From: Catajapyx aquilonaris | Taxonomy: Eukaryota | Length of the DNA: 63,757 nt | Direction of reading: 5' to 3' | Assembly (NCBI GenBank): GCA_000934665.2 | Contig: JYFJ02001087.1 | Location: 62,001-125,757, forward strand | Part shown: positions 21,301 to 38,415 of the stretch, piece after piece | How positions within the stretch are numbered: the stretch's first letter is position 1 | How the letters are laid out: each line of letters begins with the position of its first letter | Position numbers and translations under genes: made by a program | Notes under the pieces: model-generated | Told to the model about the DNA's origin: nothing | Database searches by the model: none | The model's input: the letters and a program-made list of their open reading frames with translations, nothing else

Positions 21301-24300
21301 GACACGGCTGCATGCAGTGAGGGGAGAAAATTTGTCATTGTCAATCTCGATAGGACTGACAGCCTGTCCTGGGACAGGACAAAAAAAAATAGACCATAAG
21401 CCCACCTGTTTGCGTGGGAATTGCATTTCGAATTACTCTCGCCCACAGAACGCTTTGGCCCAAATTTAGGACTTGAATTGCAAACACGGACAAACACATT
21501 TGCAGCATCTGCTATTCTCTGTGAGATAGATGCACTGCCTTTGTCTCGATCAGTCATGCCACAGACGCCAGATGTCATTCACGTCGCTCCGTTTTACCAG
21601 GCACGAGTGGTCGATACATTTTGGGCGCCACCATTTTTTTTTCTGGACTACCTCGATACATTCATCTGACTGTGAGGAGTGAATGCGAAAATGTATATCT
21701 TGAGAGAGAGCGTCCTTTCTTCATCGGCAGGGCGGACACGTTTTTCGTTTTACCTCTTGCTTCCGCAGGTTGCTCCTGCTCGGTCCTGGAAAACCCTGAA
21801 GGGCAGGCGTGAAATAATGGAAGTTGCCTGGTCCCCATGCAGAATAATTCGCGAATCCAGCCCAACGAACGCTCAAGATAGCAGATAGTCGACTAGTAAT
21901 GCGCCGCCCCCCGATCTTCCGCGCACTTGGCTATTCAGTGAAAGCACTGGAATACCAGATTTTGTGTGCATGAAGTTTGAGTGCATACATTTTTTTTAGA
22001 TAAAATTGGGACGGTCTTTCATACCCTTTAGAAAAACAGTCAGACAGATGTCAAGCCCGCAAAAAAAAATCGCTGACCTTTAGAGTGTCTTTTATTGATG
22101 TGATGGCCAAAACTACAATATTGGACCACAAATAGGTTAATAGACCCGTTCATGTTGCTCTTTTATCAAAAAATTGGTGCAGCCTTTTCAACTACTTTTT
22201 TTTGCCACTTCTGTAGCGTGTTTCCTCTCTTCCTTTTTTGTGAGATGATCAAAGATAACCACGAGCAGCTGGAATTTTTCCCTTCACACTGGATTTTCAA
22301 TTCCACTGTCTGTCTGGAGTTCTGGAGTTTGCTCCTCTCTTTTTTTTACATATCTGAACACAAACAGAAGCTCATCCAACACGCCTCTATTTGGCTTGAC
22401 AGCTAGATGTTTCGGAGAGGAAAAGTGGGAAAATCCTCCATGTCGTGAAGGAGACCTCTCGAATATTTTATGCCTCAAGCACTGTTTCGGATGTACTGTA
22501 TAGGTGCTGCATTTTTATGCGGTGTGACAAGGCACTTGACACTTCCATACCTTGTTCATACGCTGTAATGAAACTGCAAAGTTGCAGCTAGCACTATAGG
22601 TAGACACATAGGCATATACAAATGATTCATCAACCATATAATAGCTATGAACTCTCCGTGTGCTCTGCAGTAACTAAAATGGATCTAAACGGATTTGGGC
22701 TCTGCGCAACGATATTGCTGCATTTATCCATTAACATTATTGCCAATACGCGAAACATGTATTTATAGTATTGCCAAAATTGCTGTTTATCGTCGAACCG
22801 GAGGAATCAATCAACGGCAGGGGATGCGTGCTCATTGGGAATCCATGTGTATCTCTATTTATTAATTAATGACAACATGTGTTTATCCATCGACTACCAG
22901 CAATACAAACGATTGCTTCTGTTGGGGGTTGGGGGCAGGTGGCAGGTGGAAGGGGGGTGGGGGAGGCTTTTATTGCAACTAATGACATTGCTGCGTTGGG
23001 CTGCTCACTCATGTTATTGACGCACAATTAGCAGCCCTGTAAAGTTCAGTTAATCCCTATCCGGCTTTGTATCTGTACATGATGGAGCAGCAGTGCTCTC
23101 ACAACTGGCTATATATACAGGGGAATAAACCGTGCTTTGATATTGTTGTTGTTAAAAAATTAATGTCCCTCTTTGTATGTATTTTGTGCTCAGTTCCAGC
23201 CAAATTGAGCAGCGGCACAGAGCGAGACTTGGCCCCCAGTGAAACCGGGTCCAAATTAATACTTGCGGAGATCGATAGGTTCCTAGTCCGGAAATAAATG
23301 AAAATGGGAGAATAAATGGCGGCTGGCAATTGAACCGATTCGGGACGCCTAGGTCGCAGTCTATCTCTTCGGAGCAGATTCCGGGAATGTGGGTCACTAT
23401 CATTCCTATCCCCCGCCATCCGTTTCAGCTCCGGATGTACACACACACACATACACCCAATATATAAGAAACCTGATTTCCATAAAGGCGGTCTCTCAGC
23501 AGAATTCAATTTGTCCCTTTCGGAAAGGAAACGTAAATATTTATAATATTGCCCCCCTGCTAAGTTAGTATGCCAAGTGACGATCCACCAGCCCCAGGGG
23601 TTATCTAACTGTCTGTGATAAACTATTGCTTTTAACGGTGCTGCATACTGGAGCAGTCTGATTCCAGGAAATGACGGTTTGACCTGATAGATGACCTGAT
23701 TTTTCCACACTTGAAATTCACGAACTCCTTTTGAAATGACAGTTTTTATCAGCTGACTCAGTCAATTGGTTCTTAGTGTAATTTCTCAGTCGATTTGAGT
23801 GTAATTAACCTGTCATTCAAATCGACAGAACTGTAATATAATTGAGTTAGTCAGTTGAAATGGATATTCCAACTAATACTGGTCTGTCAATAATTATTGA
23901 AAAAGGCGTACTAATAATCACTCAAAATATTAAGAAAGTGGAATCATCTTATGTGTACAAACCAGAGGAAATCCTGATCGTATAGATTGATTTTTAAAAA
24001 ATATTGCCTGTAAAAGTAGTCGTGTCTACTATCAGTCTAGTGCAACTCAGAATGGCTGCTAATATAGGAGCCATTTTTCCATGTCTCGCTGGAAGGACAT
24101 TATCTCTGGAGTGAAAGGGGGTGTATATTAAAATCGGGGAATATTGGCCCAGATCAGAAGGATGGAAGATAAAAAGAGACAAGTAGAGCTGCAGCCGACG
24201 GTATAATGTGCAGGAAAAAAAGGGAAGGAGTTGAGGTTGAAGCCTTATCCGGTTCCACTCGGATTTATCGATTGTTTCTTATGCTAATCCCACTTATTTC

Positions 24301-25465
24301 CTTTCCTATTCTCTTCCGCACTGAAGAAAGAAAACGAGCAGCGACGTCGCCGGAAAAGCAAGGCCCAGTTCTTTGAGATGATCCAGGAGATACGAAGGTG
24401 GGGAAATTATGCATGACACTTTCCCCGGAACACCCTTGTTCCCCTACCACCCTGAATCCCACTTTTTGGCCATGAATGATGTATAGCTCTGTTAACCGGG
24501 TGTGTGCTAACTGACATGGCAGGGTTCAGAAGCTGGAGCGGGAGCAGTCGACGGTGACGGAGGAGATCTTCACCATCCAGGCCGAACCGGAGGAAGGGGA
24601 GGTGATCCGCCCCGGGGCGCTCAAGAAGGAGAATCCGGGGCGGAGAGACAGCATGGAGCGGGACAAGCTGGTCAAGCATGTGTGCCTCAGGCTGCCTGCA
24701 TCCGGAGGATCTCCGGAGGTCTTCCAAGTGCTTCCAGGGGAAAATGGCGAAAGAAGAATCAACAGGGACGAGGAGGAGGAGGAGGAGGAAGAGGAGTCCA
24801 AAGGGGCTGCCCCGGGGCCATGCCCGCCCTCGCCGTCATCCAGCGGGTCGTCCAGGTCGTCCAGGGCACATTCCAGGGAGGGCATGGTGCCAGGAGTCGA
24901 AGGGCTGCCGGCTCCACCGTCGCCTTTCCAGCCGTCGCCATCGTTCCTGGAGCGTCGGTGGAGGAAGCAACCACTAGCTGCGACCTCATCCAACGCGACC
25001 GACCCAGGAGAAGGTCGCAGCAGGGCCCCATCCTTCCAGGAAGAAGCGGGAAGGCTCAGATTTTACCCAAGGTGAGGCGCATTCCTCTGAGTCCATGCGC
25101 GCGCACGGTCCTGCACCTGCGCGCGCAGAGCCTCATGCGCACGCAGGCTAGAACCTAACATAACATGCTCGAACATGCCGATAACGTGTTATTTCAGCTT
25201 GGAGGACGTTCGTGGCGGCTTCAGTGCGGGGTACGACGAGCCTGGTCGCAAATCGAGCGCGGAGATCAGCTCGGACACGTCCCCTGTGCTGTGCTCGGTG
25301 ATCGACGACGCCAACTTGTGTGCACTGAGCAAGGAGGAGATCATCTCGCTGTGGAGAACATCGGAGCTGGACCTCCGCCGACAGCTGTTTAGGGCCCTCC
25401 AGCAAAGAGAAGAGCTGGTGCAGAGGGTGAGGCAGCTGGAGAAGGACCTTCCCGAACCGCCCTGA
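399..25465 (+). CDS. Ionotropic glutamate receptor, NMDA GluN3-like subunit (arthropod NMDAR3); 5'-partial, 10 coding exons in window
   Basis: Phase-consistent GT-AG exons: 399-617 (alternative acceptor at 408 possible; S1: CCYGFAMDLL...WNGLVADL...TRSE), 1842-2129 (VLDYSVPF, M1, YEWLSPFGLNPWGR, M2), 4423-4569 (APKSWPNKFL, M3 SYTAKIAA), 7930-8063 (S2 start LLTQKVGSVRNSAADFY), 14033-14186 (GDTPILDY...YAIGM), 14374-14667 (LHGKWY, M4), 20179-20298, 24327-24397 (KENEQRRRRKSKAQFFEMIQEIR), 24523-25071, 25198-25465 (terminal coiled-coil-like segment, TGA). The YEWxSPFGLxPxGR...SSAL...PKxW pattern matches GluN3 rather than GluN1/GluN2. Confidence 0.9.
2358..2482. mobile_element. Degenerate short MITE-like element with Tc1/mariner-type ends
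   Basis: Imperfect terminal inverted repeats AGGGTGTCCGGATAATTATGAAAA (2358-2381) versus reverse complement of 2459-2482 AGGGTGCCCGTATAATGACGATAA, 19/24 identical, around an AT-rich core. Confidence 0.4.
13421..13454. promoter_or_regulatory. Pair of NRF1/Ewg-type GCGCATGCGC palindromic sites in an NMDAR intron
   Basis: TGCGCATGCGCA at 13421-13432 and AGCGCATGCGCA at 13443-13454, 22 bp apart. Confidence 0.35.
23749..23858. repeat. Imperfect nested inverted repeat (hairpin or decayed MITE)
   Basis: Outer arms TCAGCTGACTCAGTCAATT and AATTGAGTTAGTCAGTTGA (16/19 complementary); inner arms GTCGATTTGAGTG and CATTCAAATCGAC. Confidence 0.45.
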
Positions 25466-25630
25466 CATGTCTAGGACGCAAAATCTCGGGAATTTGGTTC
25501 ATTTTTGTCCAGCAGCGCCCCCCAATCACGTTACCACATATAATTACCACTAATTAACCAGCAGAGGCAGCAGGGTCTTTTTGCCATGAAGCAAAAGATG
25601 GAGGTTTCCAGTGGATTGTTTTTTCACCTC

Positions 25631-25664
<34 letters not shown>

Positions 25665-28600
25665 ATTTGTTTTCCAGGGGGAACTGAACGGACACTTTAT
25701 GAGAGATTTTTTCCAAAAAGAGAAAAAAAAGAAGTTACGGCACATCAGCTCCTGTACTGCCCTCAAGCTGATTACACTAGGCAGCCTACACTGAGATAGG
25801 TAGATCAGCTAAAGCAAGACACATGCACGGCAAAACTGTACGTGATAATGTAGTTGGCCTCTTTTTTCCTATTCCGCAGCAGCAGCATTGTATCTAGCAA
25901 TTGTGCGATTTAAAAAGAAATTAAACTACTCCAGTCTTTTAGCCTATACCTGTTCTGGAGGCGTCAGGTTATAACCACTTCTTTCAAGCCTCGAAAAAAA
26001 AGAAGAGCTGATTGTAGAGTTTCATCATACCCTTCCTATATAGCTTCTATGCATTCCCACCCTCCTCTCCCTTCCACCCCCCAAAAACGTTAGCCTCCAG
26101 AAGTGAGATTGTAGTCGTTTTAGCAATCTCTTTCTCTTTATCTGTCTCATGTCCTCAATTTTCAACCACCACTTTGGCCCGGGACAAGTGAATACGGGAG
26201 GGACTTTGGTCCCTGCAAGTTACAGTAGGTTGGTACAGTAGGACCTTGTAGGCTATAAAAATAGGCCTATTCGCAGGCGTCTTAAATGCAATAGCCTGCA
26301 TGGAAGTGTACGTGCAAATTCTATTATGGAGAGAAAGAGAGACATAAATGCTGCCAAAACAGTGACAAGGGGACCAGATGGTTCGCATTGTGGAACACAC
26401 GTACCCACTAAAAATAAATAAAATAAAACAACACTTAGGTTGCTTCTTATAACCGCGCATTTTCTAGAGTTTAGCTCCAGCGGGTAAGTCCTAGCTATGA
26501 CTGTAATAATAATGATGACGATTAAAAGAAAAATGTCTCGCCGAAGTTAATCAGTTTGCTTTGGCCTCAAGAATTGCGCTTTACGTCTACTAACCGGTTT
26601 GGGTTTCGTTCAAAAGATTTTTCCAAAATTTTTGCAGTATTTTATTTCCCGAATTACGTCACTTGGAAACTAACATGTATGAATCCTATTAGGCTGTGCC
26701 AGCAACAATTGTGATTGTGATATATTTTATGTGCAGGGCGAGACATAATATGGGTTGTGAGTGGCTGCTGTAACTGATGGACTTTACCAAATAAAAAAAT
26801 AAAAGCATGTTTTTAAAAAAATAATAGAGCTCCACATCAGCGGAATCTGAAGCCTTCCAACTCCAGACTAACTATGCACTCGGAGGACTTGTCGTAGGAA
26901 AGCTGTTTACGAGTTTCGTTTTTGGATATTTAATAAAACACCATTGCGATGAGTTACTTCTTCAGTTGGGCGTCTCCTATGACAATCGCTGTCCTCTGTT
27001 TGAAAACCCGTGTAAGAAGATAAACGCTAGTAGTGACTTATTACAATTCTGACAGTTAAAGTAATTTGCATGTGATCCGTGTGCTTCTCCCTGTACCTTA
27101 ACGGAAAAAAACGTCGATGTACGTTGGATAAACAGGAAAAAAAACAGTTTCATAAAGATGGGCGCTCATTCCTAACTGCCTTGACAAGAACTTTAAAAAA
27201 AAAAGTGCATAACAGTAAATATGCTCAGTCTACATATAAAGGCAAACAACGCGACGCACAAACTGGGTTAAGCGAATGGATTCACACGTCCTTGATTTTT
27301 TAAAAACGTATAGGCGTCCACATTGGTCAAGCATTTTTAAGTGCAGAATTTTCAAATCCTGTCAAGTCCATGCATTGGAACTATAATTGAAACATCCTTA
27401 TACTTGTAGAATCTGGTGTTGTATAATTTGGTTTATATTTTCTTTAAAATAGTAATTAGGCTCTTAATATCGGCTGGGAGTGGACTTGATTCGTTTTGAA
27501 TATAATGCGCTGCTATCAAAACCCTATAGGTGTGTAATTTTTTTACAGTGTAATTTGCATAACCTTACATTATTATCCTGCATGTCACACATTGTCAATG
27601 GACGTCATCACAATTTTATAACATAATTGTTTGTGAACACATGGCCAGTGGGCGCCTATTAAAAACACACGACTATCTTCCCGTAGGCACAGGGAGTTTT
27701 TCTCACCAATTTGCCTGCAGGACCTTCGTGCATATTACATAGGCCATCATAATATAAATACACCTAGCAAACACGTTAGAATGATTTGATGTTGCGCAGG
27801 CTTTGCCTCGCCAAATAAATTTTTTTCCTGCGCCAAAAAATAACAACGTATCCAAAAAATAAATAAAACTTGGTTCGCATCGTACATAAATTTTTTGAAG
27901 CCGCTCTTCCGTAGGCTATAAACGACAAAACAAGAATTCTGTCACGGAATCCTTAACCCTGTGCATGTGATGTAGCCTGCGATATGCAATAAGTAGATAA
28001 ATGATGCGACCATCTTTCTCAGCATTTCGTTATGCTGGAGATTATGATGACGTCACTGGTATAAAAGTTTGTCATGCCTTTGTTTTTGTTTTTTTTGGAT
28101 CGCTGAACCAGAGTGGTTGATTGAGAATAGTTGCAGTTCATTAGCTCTTTAGTCGGTTCAGAATGAAAAAAAAAACTATACTAACAATACATAAATAAAT
28201 AAAAACTATATAAAAAAGCGCACCACCCTGTAATTTTAGGAAGCAAAGTTGTCAGCCCACTAAAAATTGTCGTCATGATTGCTCTCAGGTTCATCACTTA
28301 TGTGTCATTAGAGCCTCGACCATTTTTCACCTATTTCCAAACCCCCCAAGCTGATATGATTTACAAAGCGACCTGTTCATATATTACACAGCCAGCTGTT
28401 GCGTAATACTTGCACAAACCCTATGTCATACCAATGATAGCGCATTATTAAATTAATATTATGCAACTTTCATCCCATTTTTGTGTGGAAACACATAGAA
28501 AAACTAGATGTCCTCAAATAGGACGTTTAGTCCACTCCAATGTTGTGTGGATACCAAAGTGTTTTGAAAACAAAAATAATTCTCCCCCCAAAAAACGTGT

Positions 28601-31269: not shown

Positions 31270-34200
31270 ATGGCCTCCACACGCTGCCTCCTCTTCCTCC
31301 TGGGCGTGGTGCTGCTCGCAGGTCAGTGGCACACACCCGGAACACTGTAGAACACTAATCATTAAGCAAATCATTATCATGTAGAACACCGGTACCGGTA
31401 CTAACCATTACTTTATAGAACACCAGTACTGGTACTAACCATTATTCTATAGAACACTAATGTGATGAATGTTCGCAGGTTACTGCAGAGCGGAGGATGA
31501 GCTGGAGGCAGAAACGGTTGCGCCAGATATAGGTGCCAGTAGGGAAGGATCTAGAACCGGTAAGAATGTTTTCAGGAATGGGGAGTACTGATAATATCCG
31601 CAAATTGCTGTGCATATTTTATGCTGTATTTTTTTTTCCCCCCAGATGATGAAGTGGTTCAGAGGGAGGAGGAGGCGATTAAAATTGATGGGTTGAATGT
31701 GGCGCAGATTAAGGAGCTTAGGGAGAAGGCGGAGAAGTTTGCGTTTCAGGCGGAGGTTAATAGGATGATGAAGCTTATTATCAATTCGCTTTATCGCAAT
31801 AAGGAGGTATGGAGATGATTTTTTTATTGCGGATTGTGCTGACAATTTGCTAATGCGTTTTTTTTTACTCTTTTGCAGATTTTCCTGCGAGAGCTGATCT
31901 CAAATGCGTCGGATGCGCTGGACAAAATCAGAGTACTGTCGCTCACTGATAAGTCTGCGCTGGATGCAACGCCTGAACTAATAGTTAGACTTAAAGCAGA
32001 TAAAGAGAATCATGTGTTACATGTAACAGATACCGGTATAGGAATGACCAAAAAGGAATTAGTCAGTAATTTAGGAACCATTGCTAAATCTGGAACGGCC
32101 GAGTTCCTGTCTAAAATGCAAGATGTGAATAATGCACAGGAAATGAATGACATGATCGGCCAGTTTGGAGTTGGGTTCTACTCCTCTTTCTTGGGTGAGT
32201 TGTACATTTAAAGCGTACTGAACGCTTTTGCAATAATCTAATGTATTCATTCGTAGTTGCTGATCGTGTGGTGGTTACCTCGAAGCATAACGACGACCAA
32301 CAGCACATCTGGGAGTCTGATGCGGGCAGCTTCAGTGTAGTTGAGGATCCACGAGGCGACACCCTGAAGCGAGGAACACAAATCAGCGTCCAACTGAAGG
32401 AAGAGGCATATGATTTCCTGGAGGAAGACACCATCCGCAACCTAGTCCAGAAGTACTCTCAGTTCATCAACTTCCCCATCTATCTGTGGGCCAGCAAGGT
32501 AGCTATTTTGTAGCTTTGACGATGTGGGCGTGGCCTGACCTTACTTTTTTCTAGACTGAAGAAGTTGAAGAACCGATTGAAGAGGAAGAGAAGGCAAAGG
32601 AGGAGGAGGAGGCCAAAACTGATGAGGATGATGAAGATGATGCAAAGATTGAGGAAGAGCAGGAGGAGAAGCCCAAGACCCGCAAGGTTGAGAAGACCAC
32701 CTGGGACTGGGAGCTTCTGAACAACAGCAAACCGATATGGACTCGCAAGTAAGTGTTTCAGATTAAGTCGAACATGTCGGCAGCTAGAGCCGTTGAATGA
32801 TTTTTCAATCTTTGAACTCCAGGCCAGCAGAGATAACAGACGAGGAGTACAATGAATTCTACAAGGCAATCACTAAGGACCACTCTGAGCCATTGGCCAA
32901 GACCCACTTCGTAGCAGAAGGCGAGGTGACCTTCAAGGCTCTTCTTTTCGTCCCTGCTGCGCAGCCTGGCGAGAGCTTTAACAGATACGGATCCAAGACA
33001 GACAACATCAAGCTGTACGTTCGCCGAGTCTTCATAACTGATGACTTCCAGGACATGATGCCCAACTATCTCAGCTTTGTCCGTGGAGTGGTCGACTCTG
33101 ATGACCTCCCACTGAACGTTTCCCGGGAGACCCTGCAGCAGCACAAACTGCTTAAGGTGACTCTCATATTTTTATTTTCTTCTTTTAAGTACATTTATTC
33201 GAACAAATTACCATAACGGTAGTCCAGTGATGCCCAGATCATGGCACACTTCATGACATTTGCAAGTGCCTAAATGTGCTAATGTCTTGTGTTTATAATT
33301 AGGTGATCAAGAAGAAGTTGGTGCGCAAGACCTTGGACTTGCTCAAGAAGATGACGAATGAGGAGTACCAGAAATTCTGGAAGGAGTACTCCACCAACCT
33401 CAAGCTGGGAGTGATTGAAGACTCTGCCAACCGCACCCGCCTTGGAAAGCTGCTTCAATTCCAGTCATCCCACTCGGATGGGCACACTTCACTGTCAGAG
33501 TATGTGTCACGTATGAAGGACAAGCAGGACCACATCTATTACGTGGCTGGGTCCAGCAAGGAGGAGGTCCAGTCTTCGCCATTTGTCGAGAGGCTTCTGA
33601 AGAAGGGGTACGAGGTTCTGTACCTGGTGGAAGCCATAGATGAGTATTGCATCTCGGCCCTGCCTGAGTTTGAGGGCAAGCGCTTCCAGAATGTGGCCAA
33701 GGAGGGTTTCTCGCTCCCTGAGGACGAGAAGGACAAAGAGAGGCAGGAGGAGGTCAAGACCAAGTTTGAGCCTCTGCTGAAGTGGCTGGGAGACGAGGCG
33801 CTGAAGGATCAGGTCAGTCAAGATTTTATAACACTGGTGCATCGGTGATGAAATTAGTAAAGTGTTGGTACAGGGTATGCACATTGTATCATCACAGGCG
33901 CACTTGGTGAATTTATCAACACAATTGTGTATCTGCGATAAGTGGGTAAAAATGTATTTTGTAATCAAATCAGCGCAAAGTGTTACAGACACTAAAAATA
34001 ACTATAACAAAGGAAGAGGAATGAATTGACTGCTGGACTTTCGGCATACAGATCTGGAGCTTACTTTTTAAATTGGGTTCAATGCACAAGCACTACAGAG
34101 CTTATAAAGAACAACTAACAATCTTCCTCTTCATTAACACATGCTTTTTTCAGGTCCCTCTTGAAGTTTTCTCTCAAGTTAGCTTTGCACGAGGATGTTC

Positions 34201-35343
34201 TTGTGTGCGTTTCTGTAGTTGATGCAGCTATTGTCAAATCAGAGTTCTATATGTTGTTGATTGTACGTACGGGAGCTCTAATCTGTCAATAGCTGTGTCA
34301 TCTATGCAAGACCATTCTCATGCGAACTGGCTTGAACTTCTCTTATTTTGTACATATTGATTCTTAATCCTCACAACTTACATTAGTGGCATCTTAACTC
34401 TATTTAAATGCATGAACTGGGATTTTCTCTCTCTGCACTGGGGCTCTTCTCTCAGATTTCCAAGGCTGTGATTTCTGACCGCCTGACCAGCTCTCCTTGC
34501 GCACTGGTTGCGGGCATGTTCGGGTGGACTGGCAACATGGAGCGCCTCGCTGTGTCTAATGCGCACCAGAAGCAAGATGACATTCAGAGAGAGTGAGTGT
34601 TTAATAATATCTTATGTGTTTGTTTCTCCTGCCCTGTTACCCCCACCCAAGATCCTGAAAGCAGAACTCAGCGAGCGCCTGAGTGACTCTCCATGTGCTC
34701 TGGTCACATCCCAGTATGGCTGGACTGGAAACATGCAACGTATCATTTTGTCCCAAACACATACTAAGGCACAAGATGTGCAACGAGAGTGAGTTGGATT
34801 TGAAGCTGCAATTTATTCTTTCTGCTGTAATTTGCTGAGTGAGATTTAGCCATTTTTCTTGTTCATACCAATCCTTATAATTGTTGTGGTGCAAAGTTTC
34901 TGGCTATGTACATAAAATCTGCAGTTTCTTAAGCAGGTTTTGCTACATTATAGCTACTACTTGAACCAGAAGAAGACGTTGGAAGTTAATCCACGCCATC
35001 CGCTGATAAAGGAGCTTCTGAGGAGAGTTGAGTCTGACCCAAGTGACCGAAGTGCTAAAGGAGTGGCAATGATGCTGTTCAGGACAGCAACACTGAGATC
35101 TGGCTACATGCTCCGAGACACCGGGGAATTTGCAGACAGCATTGAGACCATGATGCGAGCCACACTCGGAATATCACTGGACGAGCAGGTGAGTCTGTAT
35201 GTTTGGTGATGCCATAGAGTTACTTTTACAAGCAATATTTTGATTTGCAGCCCGATGAGGAAGTGGTACCAGAGCCTAAGGAAGCTGAAGAAATTGACGA
35301 CGAAGACGAAGACGATGACAAGACTGAACACACAGAATTATAG
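31270..35343 (+). CDS. Gp93: Endoplasmin / GRP94 / gp96 (ER Hsp90), complete, about 784 aa
   Basis: Exons 31270-31321 (signal peptide [17 protein letters not shown]), 31479-31559, 31646-31806, 31879-32194, 32257-32498, 32555-32748, 32823-33156, 33303-33812, [34456-34592 or 34652-34788], 34954-35188, 35251-35343. Hsp90 signatures [65 protein letters not shown]; acidic tail ending HTEL-stop. Spliced length 2355 nt, in frame. Confidence 0.97.
31348..31461. repeat. 34-bp minisatellite (about 3.3 copies) in GRP94 intron 1
   Basis: TAGAACAC recurs at 31348, 31382, 31416 and 31450; copies 2 and 3 are nearly identical. Confidence 0.8.
34456..34592 (+). CDS. Gp93: GRP94 alternative exon 9A (mutually exclusive candidate)
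   Basis: 137 nt, ctcttctctcag acceptor, GA|gtgagt donor; encodes [45 protein letters not shown]. Confidence 0.9.
34652..34788 (+). CDS. Gp93: GRP94 alternative exon 9B (mutually exclusive candidate)
   Basis: 137 nt, pyrimidine tract then ccccacccaag acceptor, GA|gtgagt donor; encodes [45 protein letters not shown]; no stops or indels relative to 9A. Confidence 0.85.
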
Positions 35344-35855: not shown

Positions 35856-36964
35856 TCAAGAGGCTGTGACTGTGCCAGTGGCAGTTGGTTTCATCTGGCA
35901 TATGAATGGTAGATTCTCATGACAAGGATTGTCATTCCACACCAGCGCATTCATTCGAAGTTCAAGACAATCTTCAGCATTTTTGAAGTCATCCGGTTGG
36001 TTTGGAGACCAAATGGTGAACTCCAAACTCTTCCCTGATTCTACCCATTTCCAAGAGCCTTCCTCCTCCCCATCAGATGCACCCATCCAAATCCGCACAT
36101 TTTCTACAATTGACTCTGTGGCAGGCGTTGGAATTGGAACTGAAAAGGAGGAAATATCAGAAATAATGTCACTGCATGATAAGATATCGGGATTTGAACT
36201 CACATTTTGAGTTTAGCAGAAACACTTTCAGTTGAAGCCATTCGCTCTCTGAATGTATTTCAACCAAATGGCCGTGCAGGGCCCTGCAGTACTCGTCTGC
36301 TTCTGTGAAGTTGGCTTTCAAACCTTGGCTGTAGTACAAGCATCCCGACAGCCATGGTGCGAATGGTGCAGGACAGCCATAGCTATCAGTGTGGCAGTTG
36401 ACTGCTAAGGGAGCTGCTGATTCTTCGTTTTTCTTGCATATGTAGTTAAATTTTAATTCGCAAGCAGCGTCATTCCATTTGTAGTTTATACTGTTGTATA
36501 ACATCAGGCAGTGTTCTTTTCCTTGGCCATTACTCGGCTGGCTACCGCCCCATCCTGTGTACAGAACCAGCTGCTGGTTTGAATGCCAGATCCATTTCCC
36601 TTCTTGTGTCATATCGGTGGCACCCAACCAGAAGCTCTTTCCCACTATTCAGGGAACAATAATGTTAGTAGTGTGATTTGTTCGAACCGCCAAAATTATT
36701 ACTCGAAGCTTTTAAACAAAAGTACTTACCCTTTCGTGCTTCCACTTGCAAAACGGTGTCTTCCTCAGGAGTTTCAACAGTTGCTAAAACTGCATTGTGT
36801 TGGCGACAACTTTCTCCTGCATCCCACCATGACATCACATGGTCACTGAAGAAGTAACATCCTGTAGGGAGCTGCACAAATGGTGAGGGACATTCACCTT
36901 GTGCTCTGCAGGCCAGAGCCGCCACTATATATGCCACGACTTGTAAACCTAGAGTAAACTTCAT
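35856..36964 (-). CDS. Secreted C-type lectin with two CTLDs (paralog 1, about 319 aa)
   Basis: Exons 36964-36730, 36644-36204, 36139-35856 join in frame. Signal peptide MKFTLGLQVVAYIVAALACRAQG. CTLD1 has FWLGATD...QPS...EHC...WNDAAC; CTLD2 has IWMGASD...QPD...EDC...WNDNPC. Confidence 0.92.
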
Positions 36965-37011
36965 TCTGAGCAGTGTTCTGGTAACTGATGCTAATATCCA
37001 ACATATTCGAG

Positions 37012-37125
37012 TTTTATATCTGAATGTGCTGACATTTGACCCATCCAACTTGCTCTGCGATAAAGCTTGGGAGTTACCGGGGTTCTGGGAAAAACTTATG
37101 ACGCCAAGTACTACTGGGATTCTAC
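37012..37125 (-). promoter_or_regulatory. Putative core promoter of lectin 1: TATA box plus kappaB-like and GATA motifs
   Basis: TATAAAA on the minus strand at 37012-37018, about 50 bp above the ATG; GATAA near 37059; GGGAGTTACC 37069-37078, GGGAAAAACT 37087-37096, GGGATTCTAC 37116-37125. Confidence 0.4.
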
Positions 37126-37248
37126 GATAGTCTGGGTCGCATTATTCAGAGGTCAAATGTTACAGATTCCATTGATAAAGCAGTAAAAGTCAGTTTTATT
37201 CAAGTCTCACAAGTCAGTTGTAACTAAAATTCATGCAATGATACATTT

Positions 37249-38415
37249 TTACAGCCGTTTAGTTGGTTTTGCTTGGCATATGAATGAACGGCTTGCAAAA
37301 CAAGGACTGTCGCTCCACAGCTGTGTCAGCAGGCCAAATGTAAGGCAATCTTCCGTATTATTGGCATCATCTGGCTGATTCAGACCCCAGAAGCTGGTGA
37401 CAAACACTCTTTTTCCGGATCCTAACCATGTCCAAGAGCCTTCTTCATGAGCATCACTTGCACCTAACCATACACCTACGTCATCTGTTGAGTGAGAATC
37501 TGAAAGACAAAAGTAACATTTGTCTTTGCACCTTTTTCTAAAATTCCTTTGGTTGATGTTTGGTTATACAACAGGAAGAGAATATTATGTTGGCATGTAT
37601 GATACCTGTGTTTTATGATATTAGCATACTTACATTTTGAATCATGTAGGAACACTTTCAGTTGAAGCCATTCAATCTCAGTGTGTATTTCCAGGAGATG
37701 ACCTCCTAGAGCCTGGCAGTATGAAGCCGAGTCTGACCAATTAGCAGTAAAGCCATTGCTGTAATATAAGCATCCAGACAGCCACGGTGTGAATGGAGCA
37801 GGGCAGATGGAACCTGCTTGTATACTGTCACAATGGCAATTTACTTCAGGTGGTCCTACGAGCACAGAGTCTTCATTTTTTCTGCATATGTAGTTATATT
37901 TTGATTCACAGATGTCATCATTCCACTTGTGGTGAGAGTCATATAATATTGTGAGGCAGTGTTGCTTCCCGTTGTCATTGCTTGGTTGGTTGGGACCCCA
38001 CGCTGTGTACAGAACACTTCTCTGGTTTGATTCCCAAATCCATTTGCCTTCCTGAACCATATCAGTAGCACCCAACCAGAAGGTCTTCCCCACTGTACAA
38101 ATGATAAACACAGATTAACAGTCTTGAATCAACCAACTGTCCCACCCAATATGGATATATGTTCACATAAGCAAACTTACGCTTTCGTGTATGCATTCGT
38201 AAGACGGTGTCCTCCTGAGGTGATTCAACTGTGGTCAAAATTGAATCATGTTGGCGACAACTCTCAACAGCATCCCACCAGGACAGTTTTTGGTCACTGA
38301 AGAAGTAACATCCTGTGGTGAGTTTTACAAATGGCGGATTGCACTCACTTTGTACATTGCTGACCACAATCAATAAAGCAACTGCGCTAATTAAAACAAC
38401 TCTACTTTTGGACAT
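37249..38415 (-). CDS. Secreted C-type lectin with two CTLDs (paralog 2, about 314 aa)
   Basis: Exons 38415-38181, 38092-37634, 37499-37249, with the same intron positions and phases as paralog 1. Signal peptide MSKSRVVLISAVALLIVVSNVQS. CTLD1 QPS...WND; last exon (missed by the ORF track) reads VWLGASDAHEEGSWTW...NQPDDANNTEDC...WSDSPC...FICQAKPTKRL-stop. AATAAA on the minus strand at 37195-37200. Confidence 0.92.

Follow-up and report, generated by a model that had tools for sequence, protein, structure and literature searches.

How GRP94, the Hsp90 chaperone of the endoplasmic reticulum (ER), chooses its few clients (Toll-like receptors, integrins, insulin-like factors) is unclear, and the helix at residues 652–678 is the only client site that has been mapped. 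A locus of Catajapyx aquilonaris raises the question of whether this helix can be exchanged by splicing within a single gene. We analysed a stretch of 63,757 nucleotides (nt) from the contig JYFJ02001087.1 (assembly GCA_000934665.2, positions 62,001 to 125,757 of the forward strand), here called the window, in whose coordinates all positions are given unless another contig is named. The GRP94 gene that it contains has two adjacent, homologous exons, 9A and 9B, at the place of the client-site exon. Judging from its frame logic and from comparison with other genomes and proteins, we consider it likely that exon 9 is a mutually exclusive tandem pair, ancient, pancrustacean and under selection. 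A natural, anciently conserved pair of client helices in an otherwise identical protein would be a ready-made test of which side chains set client choice.

Two tandem versions of exon 9

Exon 8 (33303..33812, plus strand, 170 codons) ends in phase 0, provides the upstream donor common to 9A and 9B, and is followed by intron 8 (33813..34455), at 643 nt the longest intron of the gene. Exon 9A (34456..34592) and exon 9B (34652..34788) then follow on the plus strand, each 137 nt long and separated by a spacer intron of 59 nt (34593..34651). Exon 9A, which encodes the version that we call A-type, has an acceptor ending in TCTCAG, exon 9B, which encodes the B-type version, has one ending in CCCAAG, and both share the donor GA/GTGAGT. 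An intron of 165 nt (34789..34953) leads on to exon 10 (34954..35188), whose acceptor is common to both versions and which supplies the third base of the split codon GA/C (Asp). With either exon 9 the gene encodes 784 residues. The two copies are identical at 25 of 45 residues and at 80 of 137 nt (58%), with no stops and no indels. Each exon alone matches the Pfam HSP90 profile at positions 377/378–417, scoring 43.8 and 45.4 bits (cut-off 24.4), and each matches solved endoplasmin chains with E about 2–4e-11; the resemblance of these predicted segments to Hsp90 is far beyond chance.

Since 137 is not a multiple of 3, inclusion of both exons or of neither gives an early stop and a non-productive product. 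Specifically, joining both exons gives ...QRES and a stop two codons into 9B (GA/A TCC TGA), and when exon 8 is joined straight to exon 10, TAA follows after 11 out-of-frame codons. A sequence-only reading of this stretch had described two adjacent 137-nt exons with identical donors, 25/45 identity and a 59-nt spacer, of which only one-of-two inclusion yields full-length protein, and every one of these elements was recovered when we re-read the sequence. In equal length, phase, usable AG and GT sites and frame incompatibility, the pair is built like mutually exclusive exons.

The gene around the pair is, by its domains and nearest matches, the predicted GRP94/endoplasmin, the ER paralogue of Hsp90, and it looks single-copy; the same assignment had been made from the letters alone. 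Pfam finds a GHKL ATPase N-domain and the Hsp90 middle and C domains in the encoded protein, with HATPase_c_3 at 25.9 bits on exon 4 alone and HSP90 (PF00183) at 197 bits on exon 7, 238 bits on exon 8 (profile 205–375) and 86 bits on exon 10. The top four solved-structure matches of the exon 9 segments are endoplasmin chains (45–46 bits), with cytosolic Hsp90 at 32 bits or less, and the named protein-collection matches of the gene's exons are endoplasmin, Gp93 or Hsp83-labelled ER forms.

The alternative segment and the client site

Exon positions 1–43 align to residues 631–673 of the endoplasmin chain 9n9j_y3, which places the two methionines of NMERIM at 658 and 662; exon 9 as a whole corresponds to mammalian residues 631–675 and carries residues 652–675 of the 27-residue client site. 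According to excerpts of PMC7465916, the mammalian GRP94 client site comprises residues 652–678 and includes Met658 and Met662, which are required for integrins and not for Toll-like receptors, and excerpts of PMC8682993 place the homologous 589-MERIM-593 of yeast Hsp90 in the C-alpha2 'switch' helix and describe it as a core client site. The overlap of the exon with most of the mammalian client-binding region, as first read from the letters, thus stands, as does the difference at the second methionine: Met658 is retained in both versions, and 662 is Ala in the A-type and Ile or Val in the B-type (Ile in 9B).

The two classes, which we set by exon positions 35 and 37, were compared across 125 distinct A-type and 58 distinct B-type 45-mers. 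Their residues are almost non-overlapping at exon positions 19, 21, 31, 32, 33, 36, 38, 41 and 43, that is, residues 649, 651, 661–663, 666, 668, 671 and 673, with no such position among exon positions 1–18. The earlier claim that the exons differ most in and around the client site is therefore right at the class level, across taxa, but not for the window pair alone, which differs at 11 of 24 positions inside the site and at 9 of 21 outside it.

A-type and B-type proteins in other species

A search of the protein collection with 9A gave 256 matches among 273 candidates; the matches listed, at least 120, were 78–87% identical and those with names were overwhelmingly insect endoplasmins, in keeping with the proposed likeness of 9A to insect Gp93. 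The same search with 9B gave 10 matches among 15 candidates, 73–80% identical and all B-type endoplasmins, six of them 740–803 residues long; they include two Armadillidium isopods and full-length unnamed transcripts. The suggestion that 9B keeps a vertebrate-like SQYGW failed: SQYGW is peculiar to this lineage, the B-type consensus reads ..TS[RK]FGWTGNM[QE]RI[IV]xSQTH[ST]K.. (the A-type consensus begins ..A[GS]..), and 9A and 9B score equally against mammalian GRP94 (46 vs 45 bits). When we scored 232 fetched proteins against both exons, 15 favoured 9B, and none of these is a named insect. They comprise isopods, the branchiopods Eulimnadia and Lepidurus, unnamed aquatic transcripts, a centipede with a B-like segment and a nematode that fits neither type. 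Every insect protein in the fetched set is A-type, and all 12 members of one protein cluster spanning the segment are B-type. Full-length transcripts show that the B-type is widely expressed.

Both types occur in the crab Eriocheir sinensis, where 'endoplasmin-like isoform X1' (XP_050696057.1) is A-type and isoform X2 (XP_050696058.1, also WPE03560.1) is B-type. The two lie on the same 11.8-Mb contig, are both 788 residues long and differ at 16 residues, all within 627–669; a Logan-derived protein is A-type and one residue away from X1. These predicted proteins look as one would expect if the crab gene had the same exon pair, and RefSeq has already modelled them. Among 185 A-type and 26 B-type rows with enough flanking sequence, a search for other A/B protein pairs from the same gene found only the crab pair to be identical in the flanks (220/220), the next best reaching 0.78. 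The X1 and X2 isoforms of Colletes gigas, considered as a further A/B pair, were rejected on finding that they differ in the signal peptide and not in the exon 9 segment. An AlphaFold model of crab X2 draws a helix at residues 651–663 (exon positions 26–38) with low confidence, and we set it aside as too uncertain (mean predicted local distance difference test score, pLDDT, 62.8, with residues 645–664 below 50).

The same pair in other genomes

Scanning metagenome contigs with the B-type alignment gave 336 pattern matches, of which 103 were confirmed and 80 loci kept. Four of these loci (L002, L012, L028 and L029) carry tandem A-then-B copies, 56 run contiguously from exon 8 through B to exon 10 and are transcript-like or intron-less at these junctions, and the other 20 are distant Hsp90s of other eukaryotes (17) or truncated or single-exon (3). 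Five arthropod-type loci have both an intron and further sequence ahead of the exon; four of them carry the pair and one (L044) has B only. At all five pair loci, the window included, both copies are exactly 137 nt long with AG and GT at their borders, and joint inclusion stops at codon 48 or 63. B-type segments are 64–80% identical across crustacean lineages.

A tree built from exons 8 and 10 places L028 and L029 inside the branchiopods (99/99) and L002 and L012 in a separate clade (96/90) together with B-type transcripts. At the base of the pancrustaceans, a clade (100/99) has B-type rows only, among them genomic contigs that pass from exon 8 directly into the B segment. When all fetched proteins were searched for motifs of the four A copies, SNPHQK, NSHQK, TSHKK and ERMA had no match, and ERLM and ERLI matched unrelated rows only.

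Age of the pair and selection on both copies

A tree of 33 exon-9 segments groups all 16 A-type rows, 9A among them, in a single clade (96/91) nested among B-type rows and the centipede, indicating that the A-type arose once from a B-like ancestor. On this placement the origin of the A-type predates the split of the crab, branchiopod-like, L002/L012 and window lineages. The window protein without exon 9 falls inside Pancrustacea (100/99), in a group of branchiopods and insects (93/86) and not with the crab and isopod; a grouping of the window with insects has p 0.19 in the approximately unbiased (AU) test, and the tree places the window protein no more finely than the insect/branchiopod region.

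Nei-Gojobori counts gave a proportion of synonymous differences (pS) of 0.65–1.0, which is saturated, in all pairs, and a proportion of nonsynonymous differences (pN) of 0.04–0.24 among same-type orthologues. For the B copies, pN is 0.17 between the window and L002 and 0.20 between the window and L012; for the A copies of the window and L002 it is 0.18. Low same-type pN at saturated pS points to purifying selection on both copies, 9B included, over most of their history. The old duplication under selection that the sequence-only reading proposed is thus supported by the single A clade and by these counts. Between L028 (458–894) and L029 (2772–3203), divergence of the A-like copy has been about five times as fast as that of the B copy (pN 0.22 vs 0.04, similar pS). 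These fast-diverging A-like copies keep frame, length and splice sites, and the 12 related transcripts that span the segment are all B-type.

How exclusivity may be enforced

Frame incompatibility is common to all five pair loci. The spacer between the A and B copies measures 59 nt in the window, 31 and 38 nt in L002 and L012, and 158 and 163 nt in L029 and L028; the introns next to it are far longer in L002 (232 and 95 nt) and in L012 (349 and 111 nt). With spacers as long as those of L028 and L029, steric hindrance is not the general mechanism, and frame incompatibility is the only shared one. Within the window spacer, yTnAy motifs occur at just two places, 12 and 22 nt away from the 9A donor, and a pyrimidine tract free of AG leads from there to the AAG acceptor; the other GRP94 introns have such motifs 15–25 nt before the acceptor, with 40 nt or more separating them from the donor. 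A 9B branch region this close to the 9A donor probably contributes to exclusivity.

The acceptor of the B exon is AAG at three of the five loci (the window, L028 755–757 and L029 3064–3066), and that of the A exon is CAG or TAG at all five; perhaps AAG is a weak acceptor that these loci share and that permits regulation. At three loci as well (window 34591–34659, L012 and L002), the A–B junction gives the same out-of-frame TGA two codons into B, because the B exon starts AT[CT] [CA]TG AA. An inverted-repeat search for docking/selector pairing found seven inverted pairs, the best a perfect 10 nt, about what chance gives in 1.1 kb. This 10-nt complement joins 34613–34622 in the spacer, over the branch-like motif at +22, to 34754–34763 inside 9B. 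Alignment of the L028 and L029 introns showed no conserved block beyond the splice sites.

Transcript evidence and alternative explanations

Transcript evidence comes from one public sequencing run, whose kind is unrecorded and which is available as assembled contigs. A spliced contig of 3,890 nt (depth 54) has ten joints, all GT..AG and all at predicted exon bounds. It takes 9A through the joints 33812 to 34456 and 34592 to 34954, the latter excising 9B, the 59-nt spacer and the 165-nt intron as a single intron of 361 nt, and these joints indicate that the predominant RNA of the sample contains 9A and skips 9B. The junctions expected from the sequence-only reading were thus seen for 9A, and no contig with 9B junctions appeared in this one run of assembled contigs. 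Two low-depth contigs (depth 4 and 5.2) are unspliced on intron 8 (33815–34388) and represent either pre-mRNA or DNA in the run.

Several observations weigh against a working, mutually exclusive pair. No contig of the single run covers 9B (depth 0 at 34711–34867), although contigs drop minor forms, and for this reason the 9A contig does not imply that 9B-form mRNA is absent. The 9B acceptor (34649–34651) is AAG, a weak form. At 59 nt, the spacer is not shorter than the constitutive, spliced 56- and 62-nt introns of the same gene, which weakens the case for steric exclusion in the window. The crab isoforms X1 and X2 are automatic RefSeq models, and the exon-9 tree has 45 columns only, which limits its finer branching.

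Some of these points would also follow if 9B were a silent relic, that is, if the pair were ancestral, the lineage had become A-only like the insects and 9B had not yet decayed. The sole spliced contig uses 9A and joins across 9B, the acceptor of 9B is AAG, and the other exons place the gene near the insects and branchiopods, with all fetched insect proteins being A-type. Yet 9B has an open frame, a length of exactly 137 nt and a consensus GTGAGT donor, and its pN of 0.17–0.20 against orthologous B exons at saturated pS indicates that most of the branch was constrained; AAG is also the acceptor of the B exon in L028 and in L029, and the transcripts nearest to these two loci are without exception B-type. 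We therefore regard a relic as unlikely.

Alternatively, 9B could be mainly a regulated 'poison' exon, whose inclusion together with 9A leads to a stop and to nonsense-mediated decay that lowers GRP94 output. Joint inclusion does stop two codons into 9B, with the in-frame TGA at the junction at three of five loci, and the 59-nt spacer is long enough to splice, given that introns of 56 and 62 nt in this gene are spliced. Protein conservation would not be needed for a poison exon, whereas the B-type is 64–80% conserved across crustacean lineages and is the sole form in many full-length transcripts, and the spacers of L002 and L012 are 31 and 38 nt. We know of no precedent for splicing from A to B across spacers this short, and we consider this account quite improbable. 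An assembly or annotation artefact, be it a false exon duplicate or two alleles in tandem, is barely conceivable: the one run, in the form of contigs, gives no read-level DNA confirmation of 34652–34788, but copies that share only 80 of 137 nt exclude an assembly duplication, artefactual duplicates being near-identical, and A followed by B is seen again in four independent contigs, with both types present in the crab isoform pair.

Proposed mechanism

Under the preferred reading of a mutually exclusive pair, the one gene would yield an mRNA with either 9A or 9B and, from it, one of two 784-residue chaperones differing only in 45 residues. The swapped segment would comprise a strand and, from the C-domain, the amphipathic 'MERIM' helix, which makes up the client site. 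Exclusivity would be kept by the reading frame, probably together with the closeness of the 9B branch region to the 9A donor. The pair would stem from a single tandem exon duplication, the B-type being the older, centipede-like form and the A-type a derived one that became the sole form in insects. On the helix, the A-type presents Leu-Ala-x-Ser-Asn-Ala and the B-type Ile-Ile-x-Ser-Gln-Thr, with Met versus Arg, Lys or Gln just before. From these side chains we infer that client or co-chaperone preference may differ between the two forms, the substitutions being such as would shift it.

A wider proposal is possible, and we put it forward tentatively. The crustacean ER Hsp90 would be the first Hsp90-family chaperone with a client-binding helix switched by splicing; the pair would predate the split of malacostracans, branchiopods and the insect stem, and the two forms and their mixed dimers would have different client or co-chaperone spectra. 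Insects would have fixed the derived A form, fly Gp93 representing half of the ancestral repertoire, and copepod-like lineages and myriapods would have the ancestral B only.

Relation to known systems

The gene resembles mammalian HSP90B1 and Drosophila Gp93 in family, domain order, signal-peptide-like N-terminus and ER-retrieval-like C-terminus; it differs in that, as in several crustaceans, it has two alternative copies of the client-site segment, and in that its C-terminus is HTEL. To our knowledge, the mammalian and fly GRP94 genes are single-isoform at the exon 9 segment. Compared with the MERIM helix of cytosolic Hsp90, both exons keep G-W-T-G-N-M and the first Met, whereas the second Met is Ala (A-type) or Ile/Val (B-type) and the neighbouring helix residues are class-specific.

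Like the exons of arthropod myosin heavy chain, Dscam and human tandem-duplicated exon substitutions, the two copies are adjacent, homologous, equal in length and phase, and ancient. Unlike myosin heavy chain and Dscam, the cluster has two members, sits in a chaperone gene and swaps a client-binding helix, not an Ig domain or motor element; unlike in Dscam, no docking/selector pairing was found in the introns of the window or of L028 and L029. Exclusivity between alpha-tropomyosin exons 2 and 3 is achieved by steric hindrance. A short distance from donor to branch region is common to that system and to the present one (spacers of 31 and 38 nt in L002 and L012; motifs at +12 and +22 in the window), but the 59-nt spacer of the window is as long as introns that are spliced, and those of L028 and L029 reach 163 and 158 nt. 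Tandem-duplicated exons elsewhere are described, in excerpts of PMC2257972 and PMC9741552, as ancient and as yielding isoforms identical but for the homologous segment.

Mutually exclusive tandem exons are a well-known device, and the GRP94 case is already machine-annotated in one crab (RefSeq). A full-text literature search, with subscription journals outside its scope, found no description of alternative exons in GRP94, endoplasmin or Gp93. Papers that touch on both topics concern, by their titles and abstracts, human cells or a nematode, and a krill paper (PMC3017093), in the part of its text that is available, mentions GRP94 only in passing. With this pair, a chaperone joins the few tandem-exon substitutions known to be deeply conserved, and arthropod Gp93 data read differently in its light because insects keep the derived version only.

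Gene model and neighbouring features

The GRP94/endoplasmin gene has 11 exons on the plus strand, with its coding sequence at 31270..35343 (start codon at 31270, stop TAG at 35341–35343); exon bounds were read from the sequence, the open translation, the Pfam matches and the contig joints. Exons 1–4 lie at 31270–31321, 31479–31559, 31646–31806 and 31879–32194, exons 5–8 at 32257–32498, 32555–32748, 32823–33156 and 33303–33812, and these are followed by exon 9A (34456–34592) or 9B (34652–34788) and by 34954–35188 and 35251–35343. The N-terminus has a hydrophobic stretch that looks signal-peptide-like by eye, and the protein has an acidic tail and ends in HTEL, which is ER-retrieval-like (35329–35343). 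None of 35 relatives compared shares this ending; theirs are HDEL, HEEL, HIEL, HSEL, GGEL, RDEL, KDEL and similar. The closest proteins in the collection are about 75% identical with exon 8 and about 77% at most overall.

Just downstream of GRP94, on the minus strand at 36169–38114, three open frames contain pieces of Pfam Lectin_C (E 1e-15, 7e-16 and 8e-5), and these C-type lectin domain frames look like tandem repeats. A beetle protein labelled 'LOW QUALITY', found as a match to exon 8, joins Lectin_C and HSP90 domains, which hints that insects share this GRP94–lectin neighbourhood. The highest G+C content of the window (0.526) is at 24000–26000, where long open frames occur on both strands and in several frames (for example 24511–25158); a Pfam search of these frames gave no match. 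Far upstream, on the plus strand at 1686–2138, an open frame matches the ligand-gated ion channel domain of Pfam (Lig_chan, E 8e-9); it probably belongs, as an exon, to a gene for an ionotropic glutamate receptor.

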